The notes: generated by a model from the letters alone, not told the origin. Shown: positions 4,572 to 60,054, counted from the first letter of the stretch. The stretch: 64,000 nt of DNA from an uncultured Candidatus Saccharibacteria bacterium (GCA_964359735.1 CAYHTZ010000006.1:3898-67897); one strand, 5' to 3'. A program made the numbers and translations.

Positions 4572-5519
4572 CTAAATCATGCTTTGTCCTTTGTGTGGTT
4601 TGTATTCAGAGAAGGGTGTTAAAGCAATGAAGTTAGAGTTGTTTTTTCGATAACAAAATTTGTTATCTATAACTTCAACTTCTTGGACTAACTCCAAGTC
4701 TTTTGGGTCGCCAGTTCTTGATATATAGGTCTTGTTGCTTCCCATGAAAGTACCTGGAACACTGTTTGGTAAAGTGCCAACCATTAACGTGATTACGCCA
4801 CCCCCTACAGTGGGCAGTTCTTTGGTGGCTGCCGTTGAAAAAATGAAAGCAGCTAGTACACCCGTTTCTCGTATGACGTTGCCGCACCCTTTCTCGAACT
4901 CTAATTGACCAATGAGGGTTGAGGGTACGTCTTCCTTCGAGAATCCTTTTGGACCGTAAGCCAAGTATTCACCCCAATCAGTGTCTTCGATTTTTAATAG
5001 GTTTTCTTTGGGGGATATTTGTACCCCGAATAAACGGCTGTGTGGCACTGGCAGTTCTGGGTATGGGTTGGGATTGTTCCCTTTAGCTTTAAGTCCCTCA
5101 TAAATTACAGGCTTCAGTTCCATTTGGGTGCCTGTAGTGTCTTGAAAATGCTTAACTTTCTTGATTAACTGTTTTCCAGAAATTATTTTCCTTTTGTCTG
5201 GATCAATGCCAGCAAATAACAAGCAAGACTTTGCGTAGTGATGTGATTCAAGATATTTATTGATAGTTTGTTTAATCCACCCCTCTATCCCTGCTCGGAA
5301 CTGATCAATAGGGAGTTTTGGAATTGGATCCGCTTTTAACTTTTTAAAAAGATATTGAGCAAGTGCGAGGTCACCAGCGGCCGCAACAAGAAGATTATTA
5401 TGTATGTTTTCTATCTTGAGGATGTCATCCTTGCTATCACCTGATACGGTTTTAGTTAATCGAGTATCGGCTGCTAGATAAATTCGGTCTGATAAATTAG
5501 CTCCGAATATCAATGACAT
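4572..5519 (-). CDS. hypothetical protein (orphan ORF in a low-GC island)
   Basis: AT-rich K/N/I-rich ORF; start set at ATG (MSLIFGANLSD) preceded by GAGGAGG about 9 nt upstream; no recognisable domain. Confidence 0.6.
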   Translation of the reverse strand: MSLIFGANLSDRIYLAADTRLTKTVSGDSKDDILKIENIHNNLLVAAAGDLALAQYLFKKLKADPIPKLPIDQFRAGIEGWIKQTINKYLESHHYAKSCLLFAGIDPDKRKIISGKQLIKKVKHFQDTTGTQMELKPVIYEGLKAKGNNPNPYPELPVPHSRLFGVQISPKENLLKIEDTDWGEYLAYGPKGFSKEDVPSTLIGQLEFEKGCGNVIRETGVLAAFIFSTAATKELPTVGGGVITLMVGTLPNSVPGTFMGSNKTYISRTGDPKDLELVQEVEVIDNKFCYRKNNSNFIALTPFSEYKPHKGQSMI

Positions 5520-20805: not shown

Positions 20806-21954
20806 ATGTGGACGAAGGCGCGCGTCGTCGGTTTATTAGGAGCTCTACTCTTCGCTGCGGGGGTAGCATGGGCTGCCGGTACCCAGTGGCGGTTTTATCA
20901 AACAGATCTGGTGCGTTGTGCAGATGTGGCAGCGGCTGATAATGACGTCTGTGGGTCAGCGACCACTGGTACTGATTCTCTTTCGCGTGGGACGATCATC
21001 GCAACGAAAAAAGTGATCACCTTAGTACTGAGAGGTGCTGCGCCTAGCAAAGAGTACCGCTTAGGTTTTCTGCCCATAGAGAATTCTGGCAGTAATCCAT
21101 TTGGCAGTTACAATGCTCCACGCTGCATTGAGCTAGGCACTTTCTCTACGGACAGGAAAGGAAATGCATCAGCGAAATTTGATCCAAAGCTGACCAACAC
21201 GGAGGTCAGTAGCGGCCCAAAGTTTGGCTATTTTATGGTAGCGAGTGAGCCAGATTGTTTTGGTGGGCAATTTATTAGTGGTTTTGATTTTGGTTTGGGT
21301 AACTCACCATCGCCAACTCCTACTCCAACAGTTACACCTGCATCCAACTGTTCGGGATACATCAATGATTTGCAACCGGTAGTCGTAGACAATTTCAACG
21401 GATACTCTGATGGCTCTATTGTTGGGCAAGATGGATGGGTGAGCTATGTCAATGGAGATCATTTTGTAGTGCAGGGCAGCACGGCGTTTGAGGGAGCAAA
21501 AGCCGTGCACAATGACTCTTTCGGGGATAGTGTTGCTGGAAGGTATGGTACATCTCGTACAGACGGAAAGCAGGCCGTATGTTTCAGGACTGAGAATAGA
21601 GACAATTGGGGTTTCTATTCTGCAGATGGGAATGTCGGATTTCGCGTTTCAGATGGATTGAACGGAACAATATTTGCCTCTGTATCACTCAAGAAGGATG
21701 GCCATGTTGCTTATTATGACCCAATAGCTGACGTCTACAGTGACTTCGCGACTTATAATGACAACGAATGGGCGCTTCTAGAAATTGAATGGCGTTCGAG
21801 CGGTAAAACGGCTCGATATAGGATAAATGGTGGAACGTGGACAGACTGGAAGACATTTCGCGGTGCCCCTTCATTTACAAAGTTTGATTTCCTTCACTTC
21901 GGATTCGTACTCCCAAGTGGTTCGGGTGGAGTATATTTTGATGCATTGCGTTAG
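20806..21954 (+). CDS. secreted hypothetical protein (Pro/Thr linker, C-terminal beta-rich domain)
   Basis: Signal peptide MWTKARVVGLLGALLFAAGVAWA; no recognisable motif. Confidence 0.55.
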   Translation: MWTKARVVGLLGALLFAAGVAWAAGTQWRFYQTDLVRCADVAAADNDVCGSATTGTDSLSRGTIIATKKVITLVLRGAAPSKEYRLGFLPIENSGSNPFGSYNAPRCIELGTFSTDRKGNASAKFDPKLTNTEVSSGPKFGYFMVASEPDCFGGQFISGFDFGLGNSPSPTPTPTVTPASNCSGYINDLQPVVVDNFNGYSDGSIVGQDGWVSYVNGDHFVVQGSTAFEGAKAVHNDSFGDSVAGRYGTSRTDGKQAVCFRTENRDNWGFYSADGNVGFRVSDGLNGTIFASVSLKKDGHVAYYDPIADVYSDFATYNDNEWALLEIEWRSSGKTARYRINGGTWTDWKTFRGAPSFTKFDFLHFGFVLPSGSGGVYFDALR

Positions 21955-22315
21955 TTTCAGTGCTAGCAGGGTAACCTGCTCTTAGGTAATTGTCGTGGAT
22001 GAGCTGCTTATTGTAGTAGCTGTCGACTGAATAGTTTGCACCCAGTTTGAGGTCGGTATGCGGTCCTCTGAATGAATTTCGTCCACTTTGTGCCCAGAAA
22101 GGACCTGGGCAGTAGATCCACAAGCGCATACTAATAATAGAAATCCGCCCATTATAGGGTGTGGTGTAGATATTTTTCTGTGGCAACGTGGGCAGTAGTG
22201 TGACATATTGTTTGAAGCTTAACGGTTATCAATAGTTTCTCAAGAGAATTTGGTCGACACATTATACAGCTTTGATTTTTGTTCGCCGGCGGGATAGCGT
22301 GAATGTATAAGCGCT

Positions 22316-22663
22316 ATGGGCGACGTAGATCACCTTATTAAGAAAATTGTTGCATTCCGGGATGCTAGAGATTGGAAGCAATTTCATAATCCAAAAGACA
22401 TGGCCCTTTCTTTGGTCTTGGAGGCTGTGGAGGTACTGGAACATTTTCAGTGGAAAGACAAGAAAGAGATGGTGGAGCACGTTGAAGGACACAAAGCAGA
22501 GATTGGTGAGGAACTCGCGGACGTTCTCTATTGGATTCTGCTTATGAGCCATGATTTTGGTATTGATATTTTAGATGCCTCTAAGAAAAAGTTAGCTAAG
22601 ACTGAGAAAAAATATCCCGTTGCGAAGGCGAGGGGTAAGCATCTCAAGTACGACAAATTATGA
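22316..22663 (+). CDS. MazG-like all-alpha nucleotide pyrophosphohydrolase
   Basis: EAVEVLEHFQWKDK and EELADVLYWILLMS motifs (E..E..E / ELADV) typical of the MazG/house-cleaning NTP-PPase fold; low-GC. Confidence 0.8.
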   Translation: MGDVDHLIKKIVAFRDARDWKQFHNPKDMALSLVLEAVEVLEHFQWKDKKEMVEHVEGHKAEIGEELADVLYWILLMSHDFGIDILDASKKKLAKTEKKYPVAKARGKHLKYDKL

Positions 22664-23769
22664 GTCCAGACCTTACCTCGGCTCTCGACACAAAGCAATT
22701 CTTCAGATTCACGGGGCCACCTGAGCACTGGTTGACAGCTGTTAAGTATATGACTTGGGGGCTCGAGGAGAGTCATAGAGAGAGGTGGAAGAAGATTCAA
22801 ACGGGAGATGTTTTCTTTATTCACAGTACCGGTCCGCAAGCGTCCGCATTTCCAGACGCGGCTTCGGGCATCATAGGTATTGGAGTTGTTGGATTTCATT
22901 TCTCAGTAAAAACTAACAGCCTATGGCACTACGAAATAAAAAACAACAATAACCAATGGCCATTGCTCATACCTCTTACCGAGATTTATTTGTTCGGTGA
23001 GTTGCCCAGTCCCGCGGCGTGGGAGTCGCCAACTCCTGGTAATGATGCACAAACGGCAAAGCTCATTAGCCAGCTGGTTGCTGGTAGAATGCCAATATCT
23101 GAAATTCGAGGATTTCCTCAGATGGGGAGTTTCTCTTCTGTCTCACGGGAAGTTGCCGAACAAATCCTTTTTCAAAAGAGGCCCCTCTACCTTTACTCGG
23201 GTCATTCAACCCGTGGCACGATTGAAGAGAAGCCTTCTGATTTCTTCGAAGTGAAAAATGCGACAGAAACTTTACGGCATGCCGCCTCGCTCCGTTTTCT
23301 CGATGAGGTAAACAGAAGAATTATTACAAAGCCATACTCCTTGGTTGCGCGCGACAATGAAATTCTAGCTCGCGCAGAATCAGTGCATCACTCGATAGTA
23401 CAACAGTTGATCGATATCTTTAGGGCTAAGGGTTATCAGACTCTTTCGAATGAATTTGTGGATTTGTTTGCACATGATGAAAAGCGCTCGTTTCTTTTTG
23501 AAGTTAAGAGTACGGAGAATAGGAATTTCAGATCTCAAGCTCGGAAGGGAATAGTGCAATTATACGAGTACGATTATTTCGATGTAAGGAAGTTTAAGCG
23601 AGAAAGAGGGATAGACTTTCGAGATCAATACAGGATCTTTGTACCATCACGTGAGCCTGCTGATAAGGGTTATGTCGAGTTTATCAATTCCCTAGACCTA
23701 GGTGTTGCTACGGTCAAGGATGGTGCGGTCAAGCCGGTGGGTCAAGATTTCGGTTTTTCAAGGCTCTGA
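22660..23769 (+). CDS. PUA-like (EVE/ASCH-type) domain fused to PD-(D/E)xK nuclease; candidate modification-dependent endonuclease
   Basis: N-terminal RERWKKIQTGDVFFIHSTG...SGIIGIGVV resembles the PUA-like EVE core; C-terminal VDLFAHDEKRSFLFEVKST...Q..YEY resembles a PD-(D/E)xK motif; ATGA overlap with the mazG-like gene. Confidence 0.65.
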   Translation: MSPDLTSALDTKQFFRFTGPPEHWLTAVKYMTWGLEESHRERWKKIQTGDVFFIHSTGPQASAFPDAASGIIGIGVVGFHFSVKTNSLWHYEIKNNNNQWPLLIPLTEIYLFGELPSPAAWESPTPGNDAQTAKLISQLVAGRMPISEIRGFPQMGSFSSVSREVAEQILFQKRPLYLYSGHSTRGTIEEKPSDFFEVKNATETLRHAASLRFLDEVNRRIITKPYSLVARDNEILARAESVHHSIVQQLIDIFRAKGYQTLSNEFVDLFAHDEKRSFLFEVKSTENRNFRSQARKGIVQLYEYDYFDVRKFKRERGIDFRDQYRIFVPSREPADKGYVEFINSLDLGVATVKDGAVKPVGQDFGFSRL

Positions 23770-23837
23770 TTTGAAATGAATTTATGATCCGCAAGATAAA
23801 AGGTGGATGGAGGGTGGTGGCTGAGAGCGGGAGGAAT

Positions 23838-23927
23838 ATGGGGACGTACAAAACTAAGCGGGAGGCGAAGGAGCGGCTTAGGCAAATTGAGTTTTTCAAG
23901 CATCTCAAGAAGAGGAAGAAAAGATGA
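23838..23927 (+). CDS. 29-aa basic peptide ORF (MGTYKTKREAKERLRQIEFFKHLKKRKKR), ATGA-overlapping the next ORF
   Basis: Not in the ORF track (<60 aa); read directly from sequence; speculative. Confidence 0.25.
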   Translation: MGTYKTKREAKERLRQIEFFKHLKKRKKR

Positions 23928-24205
23928 CCACAGATGTTCAGATTGTGAAAACGGAGGATCTGCCGGCGGGCTGGCGATTTGCGGTGCGGCTGAAGGATGA
24001 GAGCGGAGAACAGGTGCATACGGTGGAGCTGGACAGTGATTATTGGCAGAAATTTGCCGGGAGGTACGGGACGCCAGAGAAATTAGTGGTGGAATCGTTT
24101 CGGTTTCTTTTGAACCGCGAGCCGCGGGAATCTATTTTGCTTTCATTTAACCTCAGGAAAATTTCCCAGTATTTTCCTGAGTATGAGGAAGCCATGAAGG
24201 GGTAA
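23924..24205 (+). CDS. hypothetical 93-aa protein
   Basis: ORF only. Confidence 0.4.
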   Translation: MTTDVQIVKTEDLPAGWRFAVRLKDESGEQVHTVELDSDYWQKFAGRYGTPEKLVVESFRFLLNREPRESILLSFNLRKISQYFPEYEEAMKG

Positions 24206-24257
24206 GTCCCGTTTCCCGACCAGGTCCATGATATGTTAAAACTTAACGTATAAACCC

Positions 24258-24785
24258 ATGAACAAACCTCCGCAAAATAACTATGCGTTTGTAGACGGTC
24301 AAAATCTCTACATGGGCACAGCAAAACGAGAAGTTGATCCATGGAAGGTAGATTTGGCAAAATTCCGTGTGTATCTCGCGCGTAAGTATAGCGTGTCAAA
24401 AGCATTTTATTTTCTTGGATTTTTAGACGAATCACGACAGTCGCTGTACGAAAGTATACAAGCGGCTGGATTTATTATTGCATTTCGCGAACATACATCC
24501 TTGATGCTTGGCAAAAAGAAAGGCAATGTTGACTCAGACATCGTTTTTAACGTTATGCAGAAGATGTATTACAAAGAACCATTTGATAAAATTGTATTGG
24601 TTTCCGGGGACGGCGATTACAAGCAGCTGGTTGATTTTCTCGTAGCCGAATCAAAGCTTGAAAAAATACTGTTTCCAGATCGGAAACGGGCATCATCACT
24701 CTATAAAAAGCTTGGAGCAGCTCATTTTGCGGCGCTTGATGAGCCTGACACGCGTCGGAAAATAGAAATGAAAAAGGCTCCTTAG
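24258..24785 (+). CDS. NYN-domain (LabA-like, PIN-related) ribonuclease
   Basis: FVDGQNLY...VLVSGDGDY acidic motifs of the NYN fold. Confidence 0.8.
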   Translation: MNKPPQNNYAFVDGQNLYMGTAKREVDPWKVDLAKFRVYLARKYSVSKAFYFLGFLDESRQSLYESIQAAGFIIAFREHTSLMLGKKKGNVDSDIVFNVMQKMYYKEPFDKIVLVSGDGDYKQLVDFLVAESKLEKILFPDRKRASSLYKKLGAAHFAALDEPDTRRKIEMKKAP

Positions 24786-24828
24786 GTAGTTAGCCGTTCG
24801 GAACCTTTTTCGTCGTAATACATAAAGT

Positions 24829-25266
24829 ATGCCCACAACCACGTATAATGTCAAGATGACGCCCGAGGAGTTTGAACAACTGGTAGATGAGGGGATTGCG
24901 GCTATTCCGGAGCGATTTTTGAAAAAGCTCTCTAATGTGGCGATTGTGGTGGAGGAGGCGCCCTCGCGTGAACAAGTCCGCCAGCTGGCGGAGAAGATGC
25001 GCTTACATCACGGGCATACATTGTTAGGTTTGTATGAAGGGATCCCGCAAACGAGGCGGCAGCACTACGGCGTGGGAGGGGCAGTGCCGGATAGGATTAC
25101 GATTTTCCGCCGGCCGATTGAGTGGGCGAGCGGCGGGGACCCTGGGCGCGTGCGAGACATTGTCCGCGATACGGTGTGGCACGAGATTGCCCACCACTTT
25201 GGTATGGGCGAAGCGCAGGTGCGCAGGCATGAGGCCCAGCGCCGGAGACAAACGGCTAGCACCTAG
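24829..25266 (+). CDS. small zincin-like metallopeptidase (Zincin_1/DUF1025-type)
   Basis: HExxH as WHEIAHHFG; about 145 aa. Confidence 0.6.
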   Translation: MPTTTYNVKMTPEEFEQLVDEGIAAIPERFLKKLSNVAIVVEEAPSREQVRQLAEKMRLHHGHTLLGLYEGIPQTRRQHYGVGGAVPDRITIFRRPIEWASGGDPGRVRDIVRDTVWHEIAHHFGMGEAQVRRHEAQRRRQTAST

Positions 25267-26950: not shown

Positions 26951-26986
26951 TATGCTTATAGGTAATTATCCGTAACATTATTGATT

Positions 26987-27544
26987 ATGGCGAAAAGCGT
27001 TCTGGGGGAACTCGGGAATAAGATGAAGGTGGCTTTAGTGGGGACCGTGAAAGGAGCGGATGAGCTGTACGACACGCTCTTCGAAGCGGTGCGCGGGAAC
27101 GTAGTGGCATTCCTTACCGGCACGGGGGATGTAGCGAAGGCGGGCATGGGCGGCGTGAAGGATATTGTGGTGGGAGCGATCCATGCGGTAGCGGAGATCG
27201 GGGTAGCGGCAGGAGATGCAGTTCATGACATTGTGCACGCGGCGGTAAAGGGCGTGGCGGAATCGGGAGGAGATGTAGGGAGCGCAGTGAAGCATTCCGT
27301 GCGCGGTGCTATTCAAGGGGTGAGTGATGTGGAAGGCGACGTGGTAGATGCGTCGGTGAAAGCGGTGAGCGGGGCAATTAAGGGTGTGCGGGAAGTCGGG
27401 GGAGATGTAGGGAGAGCCACAACGGATGCTGTTACGGGAGCGGTGGAAGCGGCCGGTGAAGTATCGCAGACAACGGTGCATGAAGTGAAAAAGACGTTGG
27501 CGGATTCTGTGGAAGGCGCCAAGGACGTGATTCATAAACTCTAG
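26987..27544 (+). CDS. hypothetical repeat protein (four about 22-aa repeats GAI.GV.EVGGDVG...)
   Basis: Internal periodicity in the translation. Confidence 0.5.
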   Translation: MAKSVLGELGNKMKVALVGTVKGADELYDTLFEAVRGNVVAFLTGTGDVAKAGMGGVKDIVVGAIHAVAEIGVAAGDAVHDIVHAAVKGVAESGGDVGSAVKHSVRGAIQGVSDVEGDVVDASVKAVSGAIKGVREVGGDVGRATTDAVTGAVEAAGEVSQTTVHEVKKTLADSVEGAKDVIHKL

Positions 27545-29026: not shown

Positions 29027-29803
29027 ATGGCAGATAATTGGCGCAAAAAGTATCTTTTTGACCCGAAAGGGGAGCGGCCGTTTCGCTTGAGCCGGTCTAA
29101 AGTGGATTTATTTCGGGAATGCCCGCGCTGCTTTTATTTTGACCGCAGGCTGGGGGTATCCCGGCCCAGCATGCCGGCGTTTTCGCTGAACAATGCGGTG
29201 GATATTTTAATGAAGAAAGAATTCGATATTCACCGCGCTAAGCAAGCAGCTCACCCTTTGATGGAGACATATGGTATTCATGCAGTGCCATTTGACCATG
29301 AAGATATGAATAGGTGGCGGGATGCCTTGCGCGGCGGGGTTACCTATGATGTACCGGGGACGAATTTTACCATCACGGGAGGGTTGGATGATATCTGGGT
29401 GGATGAAGAAGGAAAGTTAATCGTGGTGGATTACAAGGCGACGGCTACTGATAAAGAAATTTCTTTGGATGATAAGTGGAAGCAAAACTATAAGCGGCAA
29501 GTGGAGTTGTACCAGTGGCTCTTGAGGAAAAATGATTTTACCGTTTCCGACACGGCGTACTTCGTGTTCTGCAACGGCACCACCGACCGGGAAGCATTCG
29601 ATGGGAAACTTGAGTTCGACGTGCAGATCTTGCCGTACGAGGGTAGTGATGATTGGGTAGAAGGTACTGTTAAGAAAGCACACGCGTGCTTGATGAATAA
29701 TAAAGCTCCGGAATCCGGCGCCGAATGCGAATACTGTATGTATCGCGAAGCCTGGCAGACAGCGGAATCTCGTGTAGTGGGACAGGCTCTTGACAGCGGA
29801 TGA
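29027..29803 (+). CDS. Cas4/RecB-like PD-(D/E)xK nuclease with a probable Fe-S cluster
   Basis: VVDYKAT plus QVELYQW nuclease motifs; N-terminal CPRC plus C-terminal C.ACLM..ECEYC cysteines in the Cas4/AddB arrangement. Confidence 0.7.
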   Translation: MADNWRKKYLFDPKGERPFRLSRSKVDLFRECPRCFYFDRRLGVSRPSMPAFSLNNAVDILMKKEFDIHRAKQAAHPLMETYGIHAVPFDHEDMNRWRDALRGGVTYDVPGTNFTITGGLDDIWVDEEGKLIVVDYKATATDKEISLDDKWKQNYKRQVELYQWLLRKNDFTVSDTAYFVFCNGTTDREAFDGKLEFDVQILPYEGSDDWVEGTVKKAHACLMNNKAPESGAECEYCMYREAWQTAESRVVGQALDSG

Positions 29804-37900: not shown

Positions 37901-38884
37901 ATGGTTCATAAAGGAGGGAGGAAGAAGCGATTCAAAAAACTGGCGCCCATAACCTTGCTGGCGGGAGCGGCATTGGTGGGAGCTGTACTAGTTCAGAAAG
38001 GCTCTTTTTTTCAAACAAGCGGGAGGTCACCAAAGATTGAATCAGTCTCACCATCTCCCATCGTAGTTGGGAAAGAGTTTACCGTTACGGGTTCTGGATT
38101 TACCACCGAGGAGGAATATGAAGTCTTTAAGGGGAAGGGCTCTGTTGTAGCAGAACCAAGAAGAGATGTCTTAACTTCCTATCCAGGCAATTGGTACCAG
38201 TTGAGAGGGAGACTGCATGGCCGTCCAGTTTTTTCGCCAGATGGGAAGACGCTTACGTTTGAGCTTAGTTTAAGCTCTAAAGAGGTGCCGGAAAATTGTC
38301 TTACAGAAACAACTGGTAAAAAGTGCCAAATTCCAATCCAAATAGTTAATGCCGCCGGGGTGGCAAGTAATGTTAAGCTGATAGAAGTTTTTATTCCCGA
38401 GATTAAACCACTCATTTTCTCTTCAGCCTATGCTCTCGATAACCCCACCAGTCTGAATGTTCCGGCTGGAGCTACGGATGTTGATGTAGCAAAGGTAAGA
38501 GTGAGAGCCGGTGCCCAAAATGATGCTGACGTAATACTTAGTAGTCTGATGGTTCAAACAGGCCCACCGACGCTTTCGATTGATTGTTACAATACCTTCG
38601 CAAACGTTAAAGTATATGAGGTTGAGAGCGGTCAGGCAGTCGGAATTGGAGTTCTTGGTCCATCATGGGCAAACTCTGGTTGTTGGGATATTTTTCCAAC
38701 ATATGTTGTTCTCCCACCGGGAACCGAAAAAACACTTCTTCTTAAAATGTCACTAAAGTCGACAGCCCAAGTGGGTCTGCAATTTAACTTAGGATTAACC
38801 ACTGGTTCGACTGGCTATATTGAAGAGATAGATTATCCTGCTCCTCAAGGATCAAGCCCCACGATCACCATAGTTGCTCCTTAA
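37901..38884 (+). CDS. secreted hypothetical protein (Ig-like/beta-rich)
   Basis: Signal peptide; lower GC. Confidence 0.5.
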   Translation: MVHKGGRKKRFKKLAPITLLAGAALVGAVLVQKGSFFQTSGRSPKIESVSPSPIVVGKEFTVTGSGFTTEEEYEVFKGKGSVVAEPRRDVLTSYPGNWYQLRGRLHGRPVFSPDGKTLTFELSLSSKEVPENCLTETTGKKCQIPIQIVNAAGVASNVKLIEVFIPEIKPLIFSSAYALDNPTSLNVPAGATDVDVAKVRVRAGAQNDADVILSSLMVQTGPPTLSIDCYNTFANVKVYEVESGQAVGIGVLGPSWANSGCWDIFPTYVVLPPGTEKTLLLKMSLKSTAQVGLQFNLGLTTGSTGYIEEIDYPAPQGSSPTITIVAP

Positions 38885-54673: not shown

Positions 54674-55807
54674 TTATTGGCCGAGCCAAGCCATCAGCGT
54701 CTGTGGTCCAACAGTGCCGGGGAAAGCTTCGTCTCCCAAAATAACTTGTCGGGATGTATTCGGAAACTGGTAGACGCCAGTTGTTATGGTATCATTATTT
54801 TGTCTTTTTGTCATCTGTTGACGAATGTTATGGAGTGTTTCAGATTGCAAGTCCTGATAGAGCATGGCTCCGCCGGGAATGAGAAACGTGGCCTGGCTTT
54901 TTGGTGCGCCATACAATCCCATTTCCAGATCGGCTGGGGAGTCACCCGCGATCAGCACTTCTATTTTTGCAGAGGGAGATAGATTCACGTGGAGTTGCCT
55001 GTAGACTCTGTTTACGCCGTCTACTTTTTTCATACCTTGGGGTTGGATGTACGTTTTGTATACCGGAGGGGTAGCAGCGAACGCATTTTCGTGTGTGAGA
55101 GTGAGTTGCTTTATGACTGCTGGCGTTGTTTCTTGGACTTGAACTTCGGCGAGGGCACTCGCGAACGTTTCTTGTTCATGGAGGCTCTCGAAGCACGTTT
55201 CGATTCGGTATTGAGGGAAGTACACGCCGGGCTTGCCTTGGCGGTAGTGTTCACCAACTTCGTTCGGGTTGAGTGAGCCAAAGCTTACCCCTCGAGTTTG
55301 CTCAAGACGGTGCAGAGTCTCCACAACCTGCGACCGCCACTCGTTCGGTGCGGCGCCGGCTTGGGCAAGGTAGCTTTCGTCCGCTGCGTAGCCGCCGGTT
55401 ACTTGCCGAACTGCAAGCTCTCCTCCCAGGGTTCCAATGATGGCATCAGGATCGCGAAGGCCGGTGAAAGCAGGAGTTTCCTCCGGGTAGCCAGGCTTCA
55501 GCTTGCCTGTGGCATAGGAGACTAGATTGGCGAGGGGGCGTTGCCGGATTTCTGCGGACGATTTTTCGCGCGCTTCCTTAGTGATGCACGTTTCCGAGGT
55601 GCGGGCAGTGACGAGCACGACGACAAAACCTCGGGTTTCCAAAAGATCCCGCAATGCTTGCTGCTCGGACGGAGTGCCCGAAAATGTTCCGTCGATATCA
55701 AGAAACGCTACCTGGAGGGGCTGGCCTCCTTGGTGGGGTTGGCGAAGTTTTTGGAGAGCTGAGCTATGTTGGTACACGGCGGCGGAATCTTCATGAGCGC
55801 TTGGCAT
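54674..55807 (-). CDS. HAD-superfamily IIB phosphatase, trehalose-6-phosphate phosphatase-like
   Basis: Motif I FLDIDGT, motif IV GDSPADLEM; adjacent to otsA. Confidence 0.6.
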   Translation of the reverse strand: MPSAHEDSAAVYQHSSALQKLRQPHQGGQPLQVAFLDIDGTFSGTPSEQQALRDLLETRGFVVVLVTARTSETCITKEAREKSSAEIRQRPLANLVSYATGKLKPGYPEETPAFTGLRDPDAIIGTLGGELAVRQVTGGYAADESYLAQAGAAPNEWRSQVVETLHRLEQTRGVSFGSLNPNEVGEHYRQGKPGVYFPQYRIETCFESLHEQETFASALAEVQVQETTPAVIKQLTLTHENAFAATPPVYKTYIQPQGMKKVDGVNRVYRQLHVNLSPSAKIEVLIAGDSPADLEMGLYGAPKSQATFLIPGGAMLYQDLQSETLHNIRQQMTKRQNNDTITTGVYQFPNTSRQVILGDEAFPGTVGPQTLMAWLGQ

Positions 55808-56915
55808 GGGAAGAACTTACAACCTCCTCGTAGACTTTCAGGACTTGCTGATACGTGGTTTCCCAATCGAATTTTTTCGCTTGGGCGTAGCCGGCTTCGA
55901 TGAGCTGCTGGCGCAGTGGTGGATCCTGAAACAGTTTTTCTACGGCCTCTCCAATGGCTTCTTCACTATCTGTTTCGACCAGAATTCCGGCGTCGCCCAC
56001 AATTTCCGGCAAGGAACTATTGTTAGCGACAATAGCCGGGCAGCCAGCAGCCATGGATTCTACGGGTGGTAGGCCAAAGCCTTCATATTTGCTGGGATAG
56101 ACGGAGCAGAAGGCATCTTTTAGAATAGCCCCCAGTTGTTCGTGAGATATGTAGCCCGTGAAGACGACACTCTCTTCAATCTTCAAATCTTGCACGAGCT
56201 TCTCGACGGCATGCCGATAGGGGTTGTCCAATTTTTCGCCAATGATTAACAGTCGAAAATCAGGATGACTCTGGCGAATTTTTACAAATGCCCGAACCAA
56301 GAGGTCAATATTTTTTCGAGCGTCGAAACCGCCGAAGTATATCAGGTATGGAGCATGTTCTTTAAAAGGATTTTCTCCATCCATCTTCAATTTTTCCGCA
56401 CCGTTATAAATGACTTGTGATTTATCTTTGGCCTCGGGGAAATATTTACTGACGTCTTTCTGACTGTTTTGAGAGACACAAATAATTTTCTTAGCGCGGT
56501 GGACAGCCAGGCCATAGGCGAGATAGCGGCAGAAATAGTCGGTTTGATTTTTGGGTAAGATGAGCGGAATAACATCGTGCACTGTGACGATACTAGGAAT
56601 AGATGTATCTGGAATGCCGTCGTTTTCCACAGCGTGGTAGAGATCCGGTTTTGTTTGCTCAAGAACGGTAGGAATGACTTCTTCTTCCCAAACGATTTTT
56701 CCGAGCTCCACATTCTTAAAGCGAGGTTTATCAATACTTACGTGGGTTACTTGCTTTGAGAATTGGGATGGGATTTCCCAAAATAATTCATCATATTGAG
56801 TGATAAGCACCACCTCATGTCCATCACGCAGCAGTCGATTCAGGATATTGATAAGGTGAATTCCCACGCCACTGGGTTTACGCTCAATCTCGCGGGCATC
56901 AAAGGCGATATGCAT
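55791..56915 (-). CDS. family 4 (GT-B) glycosyltransferase
   Basis: EGFGLPPVESMAAGCPAIV. Confidence 0.85.
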   Translation of the reverse strand: MHIAFDAREIERKPSGVGIHLINILNRLLRDGHEVVLITQYDELFWEIPSQFSKQVTHVSIDKPRFKNVELGKIVWEEEVIPTVLEQTKPDLYHAVENDGIPDTSIPSIVTVHDVIPLILPKNQTDYFCRYLAYGLAVHRAKKIICVSQNSQKDVSKYFPEAKDKSQVIYNGAEKLKMDGENPFKEHAPYLIYFGGFDARKNIDLLVRAFVKIRQSHPDFRLLIIGEKLDNPYRHAVEKLVQDLKIEESVVFTGYISHEQLGAILKDAFCSVYPSKYEGFGLPPVESMAAGCPAIVANNSSLPEIVGDAGILVETDSEEAIGEAVEKLFQDPPLRQQLIEAGYAQAKKFDWETTYQQVLKVYEEVVSSSHAKRS

Positions 56916-56917
56916 AT

Positions 56918-57679
56918 TTACGATCGATATCGATTCAAAATAAACTCCACTACAGCTGTTGTATTTATCTTCTTTTTGTCAGTTTCCATACGGGAGGTAG
57001 GGTGTTGGCGGTAATGATAGAGGAGGCCTGGGGTTTTTACTGCCTTTCCGGTTTTAATAGCACGGATGAGCCAATCGAGATCGCCGGCGTAGGGAAGGCT
57101 CTCATCCCAGTATCCAGTTTTGGTGAGGAACTCGCGACGGAACATAACCGAGAGGTGATGAACAGGATACTCATGGGTGCGCTCACTGTGAGGTAAGAAA
57201 AAGTCGGCGAGCATTCGTTCGGCTGGCCAATCTTCAGCGGGAATAGTTTTGATAACGTTACCCTCTGGGTCAATTTTATCGATGTCGCCGTGAGTAAAAT
57301 CTGATTCCGAGTGATTTTCGAGCGTGGCAACTCGTTTCGCGAGAGTGTCGGCAGGCCAGAGGTCGTCGCTGTGGATCCACGTTATATATTTCCCTTGCGC
57401 GGCACGCAGCCCTAAGTTTGTCGTAGGGTATTCACCTCGGTTAATTTGGTGAATAGAGATAATTCGTTCATCTTCGGCGAGTTTCTTCTCAATAATTTCT
57501 TGTGTGTTATCTGAGCTTCCGTCGTTGATAACAATACATTCGAAGTCGGAGAATGACTGGCTCAACACCGTATCAAGAGCTGCAGGCAAATATTTTTCTC
57601 GATTGTAGGTAGGGACGATAATTGAGACGAGCGGACTCCTCGTTGGAAGTAGCTTGAAGGGTTGTGAAGACGGCGGCAT
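56918..57679 (-). CDS. family 2 glycosyltransferase
   Basis: SIIVPTYNRE...VINDGSSD. Confidence 0.85.
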   Translation of the reverse strand: MPPSSQPFKLLPTRSPLVSIIVPTYNREKYLPAALDTVLSQSFSDFECIVINDGSSDNTQEIIEKKLAEDERIISIHQINRGEYPTTNLGLRAAQGKYITWIHSDDLWPADTLAKRVATLENHSESDFTHGDIDKIDPEGNVIKTIPAEDWPAERMLADFFLPHSERTHEYPVHHLSVMFRREFLTKTGYWDESLPYAGDLDWLIRAIKTGKAVKTPGLLYHYRQHPTSRMETDKKKINTTAVVEFILNRYRS

Positions 57680-57694
57680 ACGACGAGCGTATCA

Positions 57695-58837
57695 TCAGCC
57701 TTGTGATTGCTCAATAATAGCCTTGTATACGTAGGCACTGGGCCGCGGCTTGCGCTCAAGGGTTTGGTAATTTACCTCCACTAGACCGTAGCGAGGGGTG
57801 AAGCCTAAATCCCACTCGAAATTGTCTAAGAGCGACCAGTGCAAGTAGCCGAGCACGTGAGCTCCCTGAGCCTGAGCAACTTCCACGGCGCGAAGGTGGC
57901 TGCGAATAAAGTTGGCGCGGAGTTTATCTTGGGAATCGGCCAGCCCGTTCTCAGTTACATAGATCGGCAATTGAAAACTTCCCAGGGAAAGTAAGATCTC
58001 CGTTAAGCCTTCGGGGTAGATGGGCGCACCCGTATCGGAACGCAGATTATGAGGATTTTTATTATGTGGGGGTGAGTAATAATTGACTCCGATAAAATCG
58101 TGCGCGCCGGTGGTGGCCTGAAAAAACATTGTATTCCACCACCACTTACGAAGTGGGGTTGTGGTGGTTGTAAAAACGTTAGCAATACCTACTTGCGCTT
58201 GGGGAAAGTGCTGATGAATTATTTTGTATGCTAGCTTGTGGGCTTGAGCAAACATGCTTCTCATTCGGAGAACTCGGGTAGTGCGCTTCCAGAGAGAGGC
58301 AGGAGTGGGCGATTTTTCGGCGACTGGTGGCCAGGCTCCCTTCCAACCTACTTGGTTGAGATACACTACAGGCTCGTTTAGGGTTATCCAAAAATCAACT
58401 AGGTCCCCGAGTTCGTTAGCAATTTTGTCGGTGTATTCTGCGAAGAGAATGGGGGTATGCGGGTTTTCCCAGCCACCCTGCTGCGACACCCAAATAGGGT
58501 TCGTGAAATGGTGCAGAGTTACGAACGATTTTAATCCTAAGCGGCGCAGTTCAGTTAGCACATCGCGATAGTGGGCAATCTCGCGCTGGTTCCAGGTGTT
58601 CGGAGCCGGTTGAATTCTACTCCACTCAATAGAAAGGCGATGCGCGGTATGGCCGAGCGATTTGGCGAGCGCAAAATCTTCTCGGAAGCGGTGGTAGTGA
58701 TCGGTGGCCTTGCTGGAGTGCTCCATTCCTGGTGTGGCTTTTTCCCATGCCCACCAATCGTTGTGGACATTGCCGCCCTCCGTTTGATAGGCGCTGCCCC
58801 CAGCGCCATAGAGAAATTTCTTCTCCCTCATAGTCAT
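57695..58837 (-). CDS. GH1 beta-glucosidase
   Basis: LNEP and TENG catalytic motifs, YGAGGSAYQTEG N-terminus. Confidence 0.85.
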   Translation of the reverse strand: MTMREKKFLYGAGGSAYQTEGGNVHNDWWAWEKATPGMEHSSKATDHYHRFREDFALAKSLGHTAHRLSIEWSRIQPAPNTWNQREIAHYRDVLTELRRLGLKSFVTLHHFTNPIWVSQQGGWENPHTPILFAEYTDKIANELGDLVDFWITLNEPVVYLNQVGWKGAWPPVAEKSPTPASLWKRTTRVLRMRSMFAQAHKLAYKIIHQHFPQAQVGIANVFTTTTTPLRKWWWNTMFFQATTGAHDFIGVNYYSPPHNKNPHNLRSDTGAPIYPEGLTEILLSLGSFQLPIYVTENGLADSQDKLRANFIRSHLRAVEVAQAQGAHVLGYLHWSLLDNFEWDLGFTPRYGLVEVNYQTLERKPRPSAYVYKAIIEQSQG

Positions 58838-58905
58838 AGTATGCCACGAGTTTTGTGAACGTCGTGTTCGCACTCACAATAAAGTATCAGTATAATCAAT
58901 TAATG

Positions 58906-60054
58906 AAGTTTGGAGTCATTGGGTCAATAGCCAAACCTACTCATTCTGAAGCTATGGGAGGAATCGAGGTATGGACTGCTCTTTTTTTGTTAGAATCGAT
59001 TAAGCGAGGGCATGTTTTTGACTTGTTTGCTCTGAAAGGGTCAATAGAAGTAACAAATCAAATCAGGCTCATAGAAGTACTTAAAAAGGGCCTAGATGTG
59101 ATTAAGAATAATCCATTTTTTAAGAGTAAGAGCAAGCTTTCGGGTGAACATAATGGCATGTTACTGATGGATGTGTCTTTCTCCCGAATGATGGTTCTTC
59201 TTAAGGAGAAGCAGCAAGACTACGATATTGTTATTAATAATTCGGCTAGCCCGCTGTTTACAGTTAACTGGGATCTTTATCAGAAACCTCTTTTGAATAT
59301 AGGTCACTTTTCTGCGGCTGAGCCGTACGTAAGTTACTTTGACTATTTCCCATTGCCGCCTCACTGTTTCTTTGTGTTTCCTAGTAGGCGTGAGTATGAA
59401 TTAGCAGCTAGGGTACCGGACCAGCAAAAATTCCATATTCCTCATGGTATAGATATCAGCAAAATTCCCTTTGAAGCAGGTACAGGCAAAAACATGCTAT
59501 GGGTGGGAAGATTAGATCCAGTGGCGCGTAAAGGTGCTCCTGAAGCGATTGCTATTTCTAATAAAATGGAAATACCTATCAATGTCTATACTTATATTGA
59601 GGATACTCATTATTTTGATACCGCAGTTAAACCACTATTCACCGCATATACCCACTTTCAGACAAATATTCCTCGCACAGAATATTTCAAAGATGCCAAG
59701 CTCTTTTTATTCCCTTTGCAATGGGAAGAGCCTTTTGGCTTCACTATTGTTGAGGCAATGGCTAGTGGCACGCCCGTGGTTGCCTATGCGAAAGGAGCAA
59801 TCCCAGAGATCATCAAAGATGGTGAAACAGGTTTCATTGTTAATGCCTCAGAAGATGATCGACGAGGAAACTGGATGATCACAAAAACGGGGGAGGAAGG
59901 TATGTTTGAGGCTGTTGAGAGAATTTATTCACTGCCTTTGGAGCGTTATCAAGCAATGCGAAGAGCATGCCGCGAGCACGTTGAAAGAAGCTTTACGGTT
60001 GAGAAGATGGTTGATGGCTATGAGAAAGCCTATTCAGCTATTCTCGAAAGATAG
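58906..60054 (+). CDS. family 4 glycosyltransferase (lower GC)
   Basis: EPFGFTIVEAMASGTPVV. Confidence 0.8.
   Translation, partial: KFGVIGSIAKPTHSEAMGGIEVWTALFLLESIKRGHVFDLFALKGSIEVTNQIRLIEVLKKGLDVIKNNPFFKSKSKLSGEHNGMLLMDVSFSRMMVLLKEKQQDYDIVINNSASPLFTVNWDLYQKPLLNIGHFSAAEPYVSYFDYFPLPPHCFFVFPSRREYELAARVPDQQKFHIPHGIDISKIPFEAGTGKNMLWVGRLDPVARKGAPEAIAISNKMEIPINVYTYIEDTHYFDTAVKPLFTAYTHFQTNIPRTEYFKDAKLFLFPLQWEEPFGFTIVEAMASGTPVVAYAKGAIPEIIKDGETGFIVNASEDDRRGNWMITKTGEEGMFEAVERIYSLPLERYQAMRRACREHVERSFTVEKMVDGYEKAYSAILER

Follow-up and report, generated by a model that had tools for sequence, protein, structure and literature searches.

The 64,000-nucleotide stretch of an uncultured Candidatus Saccharibacteria genome analysed here (GCA_964359735.1, CAYHTZ010000006.1:3898-67897; hereafter the window) encodes at positions 22316-23769 a two-gene cassette, in which a small MazG-like nucleotide pyrophosphatase resembling DCTPP1 is paired with a 369-aa protein that combines an EVE-like, predicted modified-base reader with a PD-(D/E)XK nuclease domain. 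The cassette seems to represent a variant of Type IV (modification-dependent) restriction that has not been described before, and on balance we lean towards reading it, from sequences and structural models, as a Type IV-like restriction module whose two enzymes would act on the same modified base. The contig comes from a groundwater metagenome (Hainich H51, ENA ERZ1292627), its source being a Kaiserbacteria-like member of the Patescibacteria. Both genes lie in a segment (21955-24800) that an initial annotation had taken for a single low-GC island of about 2.8 kb, holding a MazG gene, two nucleases and two tiny overlapping open reading frames (ORFs). Its calls of the MazG-like gene, the 369-aa nuclease and a NYN-domain gene all hold, and its suspicion of a defence-like cluster of nucleases and a nucleotide hydrolase is borne out for the MazG/nuclease pair, which is the true unit. 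The island as a whole does not hold together: only the MazG-like and 369-aa genes co-occur elsewhere, and the NYN gene is independent of them. What the annotation missed is the EVE-like reader fused to the PD-(D/E)XK domain in its 369-aa 'nuclease', and this fusion is the key to the identity of the gene pair. All functional statements made below are computational. The functional unit, 22316-23769, comprises the following features:

22316-22663, plus strand: MazG-like, DCTPP1/RS21-C6-type all-alpha nucleoside triphosphate (NTP) pyrophosphatase, 115 aa, PF12643
22660-23769, plus strand: reader-nuclease, 369 aa, its start overlapping the MazG stop (ATGA)
22687-23013, plus strand: EVE/PUA-like modified-base reader domain (predicted), about residues 10-118, from Foldseek and profile matches
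23014-23355, plus strand: conserved middle region, about residues 119-232, with an invariant GFPxxGSxS motif
23356-23739, plus strand: PD-(D/E)XK nuclease domain, about residues 233-360, with D268, E281, K283 and Q300/Y304

The MazG-like protein is a DCTPP1-type pyrophosphatase

The 115-aa protein encoded by the first gene matches the Pfam families PF12643 (E = 3.9e-15; 56.3 bits against a cut-off of 27) and PF03819 (9.5e-6), and in the PDB it recovers the archaeal pyrophosphatase 4qgp (1e-19) and DCTPP1 (6sqw, 2a3q and 2oie; 2.6e-14). With both it shares the all-alpha MazG-like fold and the metal ligands, its residues E36, E39, E42, E65/E66 and D69 aligning to Glu63/66/69/94/95 and Asp98 of DCTPP1. 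For the substrate pocket we used the published description of DCTPP1, including the N3-reading His51 (PMC13291643), and found that W20, W46, H24, F14 and F23 align to Trp47, Trp73, His51, Phe41 and Phe50, such that the Trp-Trp base sandwich and the His51 of DCTPP1 both have counterparts. These features are not peculiar to the window: the Trp sandwich and the His51 equivalent are conserved in all 45 aligned copies of the cassette, and the ExxExxE...EExxD signature is kept in them with a few conservative Glu-to-Asp/Lys changes at the first Glu of EExxD.

DCTPP1 hydrolyses dCTP and C5-modified dCTPs and keeps 5-methyl-dCTP out of DNA (PMC7162842, PMC4491611, PMC13291643). This documented role, the exclusion of C5-modified dCTPs from DNA, is also the one that we propose for the MazG-like protein, for which a modified cytosine-type deoxynucleoside triphosphate (dNTP) would be a plausible substrate. 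Unlike DCTPP1, the protein is only 115 aa long, has no eukaryotic extensions and lacks a counterpart of His38, which makes its cytosine pocket a partly conserved one; and unlike that housekeeping enzyme, whose substrates are documented, it shares an operon with a nuclease and its substrate is a predicted one.

The 369-aa protein fuses an EVE-like reader to a PD-(D/E)XK nuclease

As a whole, the 369-aa protein matches no Pfam family above threshold. We relied on an AlphaFold model built from a 33-sequence alignment (predicted local distance difference test (pLDDT) 88.7, predicted template modelling score (pTM) 0.76), in which residues 225-231 form a low-confidence linker. Foldseek searches with the N-terminal ~120 residues retrieve the EVE proteins 2p5d (1e-6), 2hd9 and 1wmm (1e-6 to 1e-5), among them MJECL36 and PH1033, along with YTH domains, THYN1 in complex with 5-methylcytosine (5mC) DNA (5j3e) and the EVE-HNH enzyme VcaM4I (6yex). 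Independently, the sequence profile (A3) matches the UPF0310 EVE proteins MJECL36 (1e-4) and PH1033 (2.6e-4). The invariant residues of the reader are W24, W33, W43, H55, W89, E92 and W100, and the same N-terminal domain recurs in McrB-type AAA_5 GTPases, often together with MrcB_N, as well as in HNH and NOV_C nucleases. The middle region is marked by the invariant residues (A1) G151, F152, P153, G156, S157 and S159, and a similar motif, FPVNGSASG, is kept in variants with an HNH nuclease and in a haloarchaeal homologue.

The C-terminal ~130 residues retrieve XisH (2inb/2okf), N.BspD6I, Hjc, Cdn1/Can2 and FokI in Foldseek searches, with weak profile matches to PDDEXK_9 and Hjc. The catalytic residues are intact: across the 33 sequences, which diverge down to 24% identity, D268, K283, Q300 and Y304 never vary, and at least 90% keep E281. 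In the protein P0207 this nuclease domain follows a genuine PF01878 EVE domain. A fused reader and nuclease with swappable modules is the architecture of Type IV restriction endonucleases (PMC6765204, PMC7897488, PMC7641849). Judged by its domains and modelled fold, the 369-aa protein has both the architecture and the combinatorial behaviour of such modification-dependent enzymes, and no methyltransferase domain adjoins the cassette in the window or in five other contexts with called genes.

The reader also occurs outside the cassette. On a Halorussus aquaticus plasmid (L069, NZ_CP100402, 4761-6614) it forms the N-terminus of a McrB-like AAA ATPase that is adjoined by a DUF3578 (MrcB_N) protein, with no MazG gene nearby; at this single locus, therefore, the MazG link is absent from a McrBC-type user of the reader. 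Matches to the reader domain alone lie in McrB-like AAA ATPases on six haloarchaeal plasmids other than the one that carries a full-length homologue (see below).

The two genes are obligately linked across bacteria and archaea

In the window the stop codon of the MazG-like gene overlaps the start codon of the 369-aa gene (ATGA), as read directly in the sequence. The 369-aa protein has 386 homologues of ~368 aa with 65-85% identity in many lineages of Patescibacteria (317 representatives at 50% clustering). In the six contexts for which genes were called, a MazG-like gene of 113-116 aa overlaps or abuts the 5' end of the nuclease gene each time, while all other neighbours differ; none of the remaining genes of the segment, namely those for a 47-aa, a 93-aa and the NYN protein, stands beside the cassette in the contexts other than the window.

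To survey the cassette more widely, we scanned one genome per species from ~185,000 species with a single peptide pattern, which is biased toward the conserved reader motif, and the 48 loci obtained are thus a lower bound. At 47 of the 48 loci, the gene for the relative of the 369-aa protein is preceded on its own strand by a MazG-like ORF, and the lone exception is cut off by a contig end. The carriers include Kaiserbacteria, Paceibacterota, Roizmanbacteria, Yanofskybacteria, Doudnabacteria, Uhrbacteria, Levyibacteriota, Saccharibacteria and Peribacteria, and further Omnitrophota, Elusimicrobia, Firestonebacteria, Bacteroidota, Ignavibacteria, a Nanoarchaeia archaeon and two cultured Proteobacteria, with identities of 57-72% across phyla and domains.

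The linkage also persists where the genes themselves have changed. At four loci (L055-L058), including those of the isolates Desulforhopalus singaporensis and Cognatilysobacter tabacisoli, an HNH domain takes the place of PD-(D/E)XK behind the reader, and the gene still follows a MazG-like one; these proteins keep the FPxNGSxS middle motif together with the reader. On a Halosegnis marinus plasmid the pair is convergent, with a tail-to-tail overlap, and adjoins CRISPR-Cas genes; here the full-length nuclease homologue is 24% and the 'nucleotide pyrophosphohydrolase' 33% identical to the proteins of the window. In four further loci a single gene has come to lie between the partners, coding for a RadC-like protein in three (L026, L031, L041) and for a Schlafen-type helicase in the fourth (L051). 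The linkage of the two genes is therefore obligate, and since it outlives sequence divergence, changes of gene order and the swapping of the effector, it is strong evidence that the MazG-like protein and the reader-nuclease are functionally coupled.

The cassette is mobile, keeps defence-like company and decays nuclease-first

The GC content of the cassette is below that of its flanks in 45 of 47 loci (mean difference -6.1 points, Wilcoxon p = 5e-13), although it partly tracks the GC content of the host (r = 0.78), and the flanking genes differ in every genome. The cassette is horizontally mobile and has been widely transferred. The only plasmid-borne full-length homologue is that of the haloarchaeal plasmid mentioned above. 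A phage origin was considered and rejected, as a scan of IMG/VR viral contigs returned no relative of the nuclease.

The neighbours of the cassette are defence-like and include HicA, HipA, PIN, reverse transcriptase, Schlafen-type helicase, RadC and CRISPR-Cas genes. Three of them recur. A RadC-like JAB protein (PF04002 + UPF0758_N) adjoins the cassette on the same strand at nine loci and may be an optional third component. A protein of ~231 aa with the domains SAD_SRA and HNH (SRA-HNH) abuts the cassette on either side in three intact and three fragmentary copies. A Schlafen-group-3/DUF2075-type helicase (PF09848, 3.6e-82 to 8.6e-94) is attached at five loci. Their positions are:

L026:3201-3932, L031:2380-3054 and L041:5273-5998, same strand as the cassette: RadC-like, between the partners
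L027, L028, L029, L030, L038 and L045, same strand as the cassette: RadC-like, just upstream of MazG
L018:7154-7846, L026:2128-2826 and L034:7103-7795: SRA-HNH, intact
L016, L017 and L043: SRA-HNH, fragments
L024, L047, L048 and L049 (7145-9125): Schlafen-group-3 helicase, directly downstream
L051:4121-5989: Schlafen-group-3 helicase, between MazG and nuclease

SRA-HNH is the classic architecture of a reader-nuclease for 5mC and 5-hydroxymethylcytosine. Like the 369-aa protein, it fuses a reader to a nuclease, and its presence beside the cassette in several genomes fits a modified-cytosine theme and suggests the same class of target; it differs in the SRA fold of its reader and in not being generally linked to MazG. 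At these loci one MazG gene is flanked by two different modified-base reader-nucleases. A further PD-(D/E)XK nuclease of 258 aa (PDDEXK_1, with an N-terminal CxxC) is encoded in the window at 29027-29800, ~5 kb downstream of the cassette, and has homologues less than 6 kb from the cassette at L024, L043 and L045; this proximity could be chance or a loose association.

At six loci (L035, L042, L053, L054, L059, L060) the cassette is decayed, the reader-nuclease being broken up by frameshifts or stop codons or cut down to a stub of 35-65 aa, which at L059 runs on into an unrelated P-loop protein. All of these but L053 keep the MazG ORF, and no intact nuclease without a MazG gene was seen. This nuclease-first decay is the pattern expected if the nuclease is costly and the MazG-like protein protective, and it resembles the toxin-first decay of restriction-modification (R-M) and toxin-antitoxin pairs.

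A proposed mechanism and its alternatives

In the mechanism that we favour, one modified base would be met in two states, as free precursor by the MazG-like protein and as part of the polymer by the nuclease. The EVE/PUA-like domain would recognise a non-canonical base in DNA by flipping it out, the likeliest candidate being a cytosine modified at C5 or N4, and the PD-(D/E)XK domain would cut the DNA bearing this mark. The pyrophosphatase would hydrolyse the triphosphate of the same base to the monophosphate and so keep the host DNA free of the mark, such that the host chromosome is spared by its own nuclease. CPR (Candidate Phyla Radiation) bacteria and DPANN archaea depend on nucleotide salvage, and in them particularly scavenged or recycled modified nucleotides might pose a risk of self-marking. 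A further effect of the pyrophosphatase could be to deprive phages of the modified dNTPs from which they make their modified DNA; its role may hence be self-protection, an attack on phage precursors, or both.

Several observations weigh against this reading. One of the two histidines that confer cytosine selectivity on DCTPP1, His38, aligns to Ile11 of the MazG-like protein and is not conserved, and the base could therefore be one other than cytosine. For the 369-aa protein no match to PF01878 (EVE) is obtained at E <= 0.1; even its relative P0168 remains below threshold (16.5 bits vs 23), and NCBIfam PRK00809 scores 17 bits against the 139 needed. The N-terminal domain is therefore better termed EVE-like than a member of PF01878, its assignment coming from the predicted fold and a weak profile match only. 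Between the two proteins, pairwise identities show only a moderate correlation (Spearman 0.38). Transfer may have been less broad than it seems, as the taxonomic labels of metagenome-assembled genomes are often automatic and unreliable. Most characterised Type IV enzymes need no partner that sanitises the nucleotide pool, and the cassette is also found in organisms that can synthesise all their nucleotides, which makes the scavenging rationale less compelling. Finally, PADLOC-DB v2 has no model for the cassette: the MazG-like protein has no match in it, and the nuclease only a marginal one to a Type IIG model (0.0066). Of the other genes in the segment, the NYN gene has only a match to HEC-09 (3e-4).

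The obligate linkage would suit an enzyme-sensor pair equally well. The pyrophosphatase might act on a phage-made or damage-derived modified dNTP and release a modified deoxynucleoside monophosphate (dNMP), which the EVE/PUA-like domain would bind in place of DNA and which would unleash an indiscriminate DNase in an abortive defence. A dNMP is indeed the product of MazG chemistry, and a PUA-like domain is reported to bind free m6-deoxyadenosine monophosphate (m6-dAMP), by which the PUA-Cal-HAD system is triggered; a MazG-like enzyme is present in rare variants of that system (bioRxiv 10.64898/2026.01.15.699771). We nevertheless regard such a relay as unlikely: in the published variants MazG replaces the effector and does not generate a signal, the reader is shared with McrB, HNH and NOV_C proteins of the DNA-restriction repertoire, the relatives scanned showed no TIR, HEPN, calcineurin or HAD partner, and decay that begins with the nuclease is not predicted. 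MazG-family proteins are classic house-cleaning enzymes, and the pair could instead serve repair, the pyrophosphatase removing a damaged (e.g., oxidised or deaminated) dNTP and the reader-nuclease nicking DNA at the same lesion once incorporated. The logic of one base in two states holds equally here, and the strong conservation of the sequences (65-85% identity) would be in keeping with it. What speaks against repair is the sparse distribution, with detection in just 48 of the ~185,000 species genomes (a lower bound, from a single peptide pattern), the different context in each genome, the near-identity across phyla, the foreign GC content, the frequently disrupted copies, the exchange of PD-(D/E)XK and HNH modules, the sharing of the reader with McrB, and the SRA-HNH and toxin genes as neighbours; these traits are typical of defence rather than repair genes, and we give the repair model little credence.

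Tight overlap, low GC content, horizontal spread and loss of the nuclease before MazG, much as in orphan antitoxins and methyltransferases, are also what a selfish addiction module would display. In that case the nuclease would be a toxin attacking a chromosome with traces of the modified base, the pyrophosphatase its antidote, and post-segregational killing the means of persistence. This is improbable in our view, given that no plasmid or phage vehicle was found except the one haloarchaeal plasmid, and that killing upon joint loss of both genes requires very different protein stabilities. By analogy with classical R-M systems, which are both, addiction would in any case be compatible with a restriction module of the kind favoured here. 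The original notion of one 2.8-kb defence island, with the MazG-like gene, the nuclease, a toxin-antitoxin-like pair and the NYN gene as a single block, draws on the fact that all these genes are closely packed on one strand within the stretch of lowest GC content. It is very improbable, as the MazG-like and nuclease genes alone co-occur elsewhere, the NYN gene being solitary among housekeeping genes there, the small ORFs have a host-like GC content at third codon positions, the 93-aa ORF is without detectable homologue, and there is no integrase, att repeat or tRNA (see below). The boldest readings of the cassette, as a metabolite-gated immune switch that answers to the monophosphate of a phage-specific modified dNTP or, nearly as novel, as the first restriction system to tell self from non-self by policing the dNTP pool and not by the methylation state of DNA, seem to us fairly unlikely.

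Relationship to known systems and implications

The closest parallels to the 369-aa protein are the Type IV enzymes with an EVE or PUA reader, namely the VcaM4I and TspA15I group. They share with it an N-terminal PUA reader, a C-terminal nuclease and the interchange of HNH and PD-(D/E)XK modules, and with the cassette the lack of a cognate methyltransferase and a sporadic, horizontal distribution. The 369-aa protein differs in its distinct reader family below the Pfam EVE threshold and its extra middle region, and above all in being accompanied by a DCTPP1-like gene in 47/48 loci. In PUA-Cal-HAD and its rare MazG variants, a PUA-like sensor is likewise coupled to an enzyme that targets NTPs, and the PUA family concerned is also fused to HNH and McrB (bioRxiv 10.64898/2026.01.15.699771). 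Here, unlike in that system, the PUA-like domain forms one polypeptide with a DNase, and MazG is a small protein of its own; no calcineurin-CE or HAD gene is present in the window segment or the contexts examined. A passing mention in a figure legend places MutT/Nudix-like genes next to SauUSI-type Type IV enzymes (Fig. 9, PMC7641849), which again sets a nucleotide pyrophosphohydrolase beside a modification-dependent restriction enzyme, albeit a Nudix protein instead of an all-alpha MazG and with a different nuclease architecture. Neither the EVE census (PMC7641849) nor the census of Type IV/McrBC systems (PMC11090510) mentions MazG, which is elsewhere listed as an unvalidated predicted defence domain (PMC13092281), and a full-text literature search found no published description of the pairing of MazG with an EVE-nuclease.

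Type IV enzymes are thought to be partner-free because the host lacks the modification. The DCTPP1-like partnership suggests that some hosts actively keep modified precursors out of their DNA, which would apply especially to the ultra-small, nucleotide-scavenging CPR bacteria and DPANN archaea, and that hosts might attack the DNA modification of phages at the level of the precursor. If true, this would add a nucleotide-pool layer to restriction biology, provide a prokaryotic counterpart and a possible origin for the role of DCTPP1 in protecting the animal epigenome, and yield new reader-nuclease reagents for the mapping of modified bases. With Desulforhopalus singaporensis DSM 12130 and Cognatilysobacter tabacisoli C8-1, two carriers are available in culture in which the idea can be tested directly.

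Composition and borders of the surrounding segment

A windowed analysis of GC content bears out the uneven composition that the initial annotation had noticed. The segment 21955-24800 has 44.7% GC vs 51.6% over the whole window and is its lowest 2.8-kb stretch; just 0.6% of all 2846-bp windows are equally low, and the minimum of the 64 kb lies inside it. The flanks, however, do not have the uniform 55% that had been supposed. The right edge is sharp, with a Zincin gene of 58.7% GC beginning at 24829, whereas the left edge is gradual: the left flank has ~48-55% GC and the drop starts at ~21000, inside an upstream 382-aa gene. The GC content at third codon positions (GC3) of that gene is 0.415, against 0.55 +/- 0.07 for the ORFs of the window. 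Within the segment, the MazG-like gene has a GC3 of 0.466, the 369-aa gene one of 0.449 and the NYN gene the lowest, 0.386, whereas the 47-aa (0.667) and 93-aa (0.596) ORFs are host-like. The segment is thus a compositional mosaic and not one island, although the foreign composition of the region is supported.

Comparison with relatives points the same way, the context being different in every relative examined. The upstream 382-aa gene (20806-21954), which is without a Pfam family match, is shared with the sole close relative found (L061) at 78% nucleotide and 84% amino-acid identity. The similarity stops abruptly at 21944-21957, at the stop codon of this gene, beyond which L061 carries unrelated genes (Excalibur, PIN, CopC). 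The variable region therefore starts immediately after the 382-aa gene. As L061 has nothing in common with the window downstream of that gene, the left break can be placed and a right boundary of an island cannot. A paralogous relationship of the 382-aa gene with another low-GC gene of 383 aa was considered and rejected. No tRNA or tmRNA occurs in the 64-kb window, its repeats are short, chance-level ones with no flanking direct repeats among them, and none of the genes in the segment encodes an integrase domain; for want of tRNA, att repeats and integrase, the idea of an integrative genomic island was rejected.

The ~360 bp of non-coding DNA with which the segment was said to begin are indeed present:

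21955-22315, no strand: non-coding spacer, 361 bp, 44.3% GC, at the left synteny break

Presumably the spacer holds the promoter of the cassette. It has no Rfam match even at E <= 1, folds no better as RNA than shuffled sequences (z = -0.57), fails to align with the upstream regions of five relatives (six loci), and has promoter and terminator counts at chance level, and a conserved regulatory RNA or promoter was accordingly rejected. So was a hidden gene: on the minus strand there are a 74-aa ORF with CxxC and a 103-aa ORF, neither with Pfam support, which leaves the spacer with no supported ORF.

GC-poor genes are also found elsewhere in the window, and the MazG region is therefore not its sole compositionally foreign patch. 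They code for a proteasome-subunit-like protein (4575-5519, minus strand, 40.7% GC), a TIG-domain protein (37901-38881, plus strand, GC3 0.37) and a cluster of glycosyltransferases of the GT4, GT2 and GT1 families (55794-60051, GC3 0.38-0.49). A 187-aa protein at 26981-27544, with no Pfam family match, is made up of repetitive Gly/Ala/Val/Asp-rich segments, and the GC skew there is very strong (up to 0.45).

The small ORFs and the NYN gene

Three further genes follow the cassette within the segment:

23784-23927, plus strand: basic small protein, 47 aa, with a DUF2188-like motif; neighbour but not member of the cassette
23924-24205, plus strand: orphan ORF, 93 aa, with an ATGA overlap with the 47-aa ORF; not a cassette member
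24258-24785, plus strand: NYN/LabA-like predicted ribonuclease, 175 aa, PF01936 (3.1e-15); not a cassette member

The first of these had been read as a 29-aa peptide starting at 23838. The 47-aa reading has a weak match to DUF2188 (0.0095) and matches to PHROG 2859 (4e-4) and PHROG 3684 (8.5e-4), and in tblastn searches it aligns from residue 1 with segments of phage head proteins. Since all these alignments begin at the first residues of the 47-aa form, the 29-aa start is probably wrong and a protein of 47 aa the more likely one, even though the internal ATG at 23838 has a better Shine-Dalgarno sequence. The DUF2188 motif also occurs embedded in phage head-protease and coat proteins, and in a Doudnabacteria genome two genes for DUF2188-type small proteins (L005:10074-10658) lie ~1-1.6 kb downstream of the cassette.

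The overlap (ATGA) of the small basic ORF with the 93-aa ORF is as first described. The latter finds only itself among 5.8 billion proteins and forms a one-member cluster. Its single-sequence AlphaFold model (pLDDT 83) has three strands plus helices and no significant fold match in the PDB (best E 0.0098). The suggestion that the two ORFs form a toxin-antitoxin or regulator pair finds no support: searches of Pfam, NCBIfam, PADLOC and PHROGs match neither of them to a toxin-antitoxin or regulator family, the orphan status of the 93-aa ORF offers no lead, GC3 is host-like in both, and nothing beyond the 4-bp overlap speaks for it.

The NYN gene was rejected as a third component of the cassette on its genomic context. 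In three other genomes it is solitary, standing beside DnaG/sigma-70 or ThrRS/DnaE genes and never with MazG or the EVE-nuclease, and the earlier grouping of two nucleases with a hydrolase is thus partly coincidence. Like the small ORFs, the NYN gene is an unrelated neighbour within the variable region. Homologues of the NYN protein form 4672 clusters; the best among those listed have 65-91% identity, and every listed one with a named source comes from Patescibacteria or candidate-phyla groups, in keeping with an independent gene that is common in Patescibacteria.

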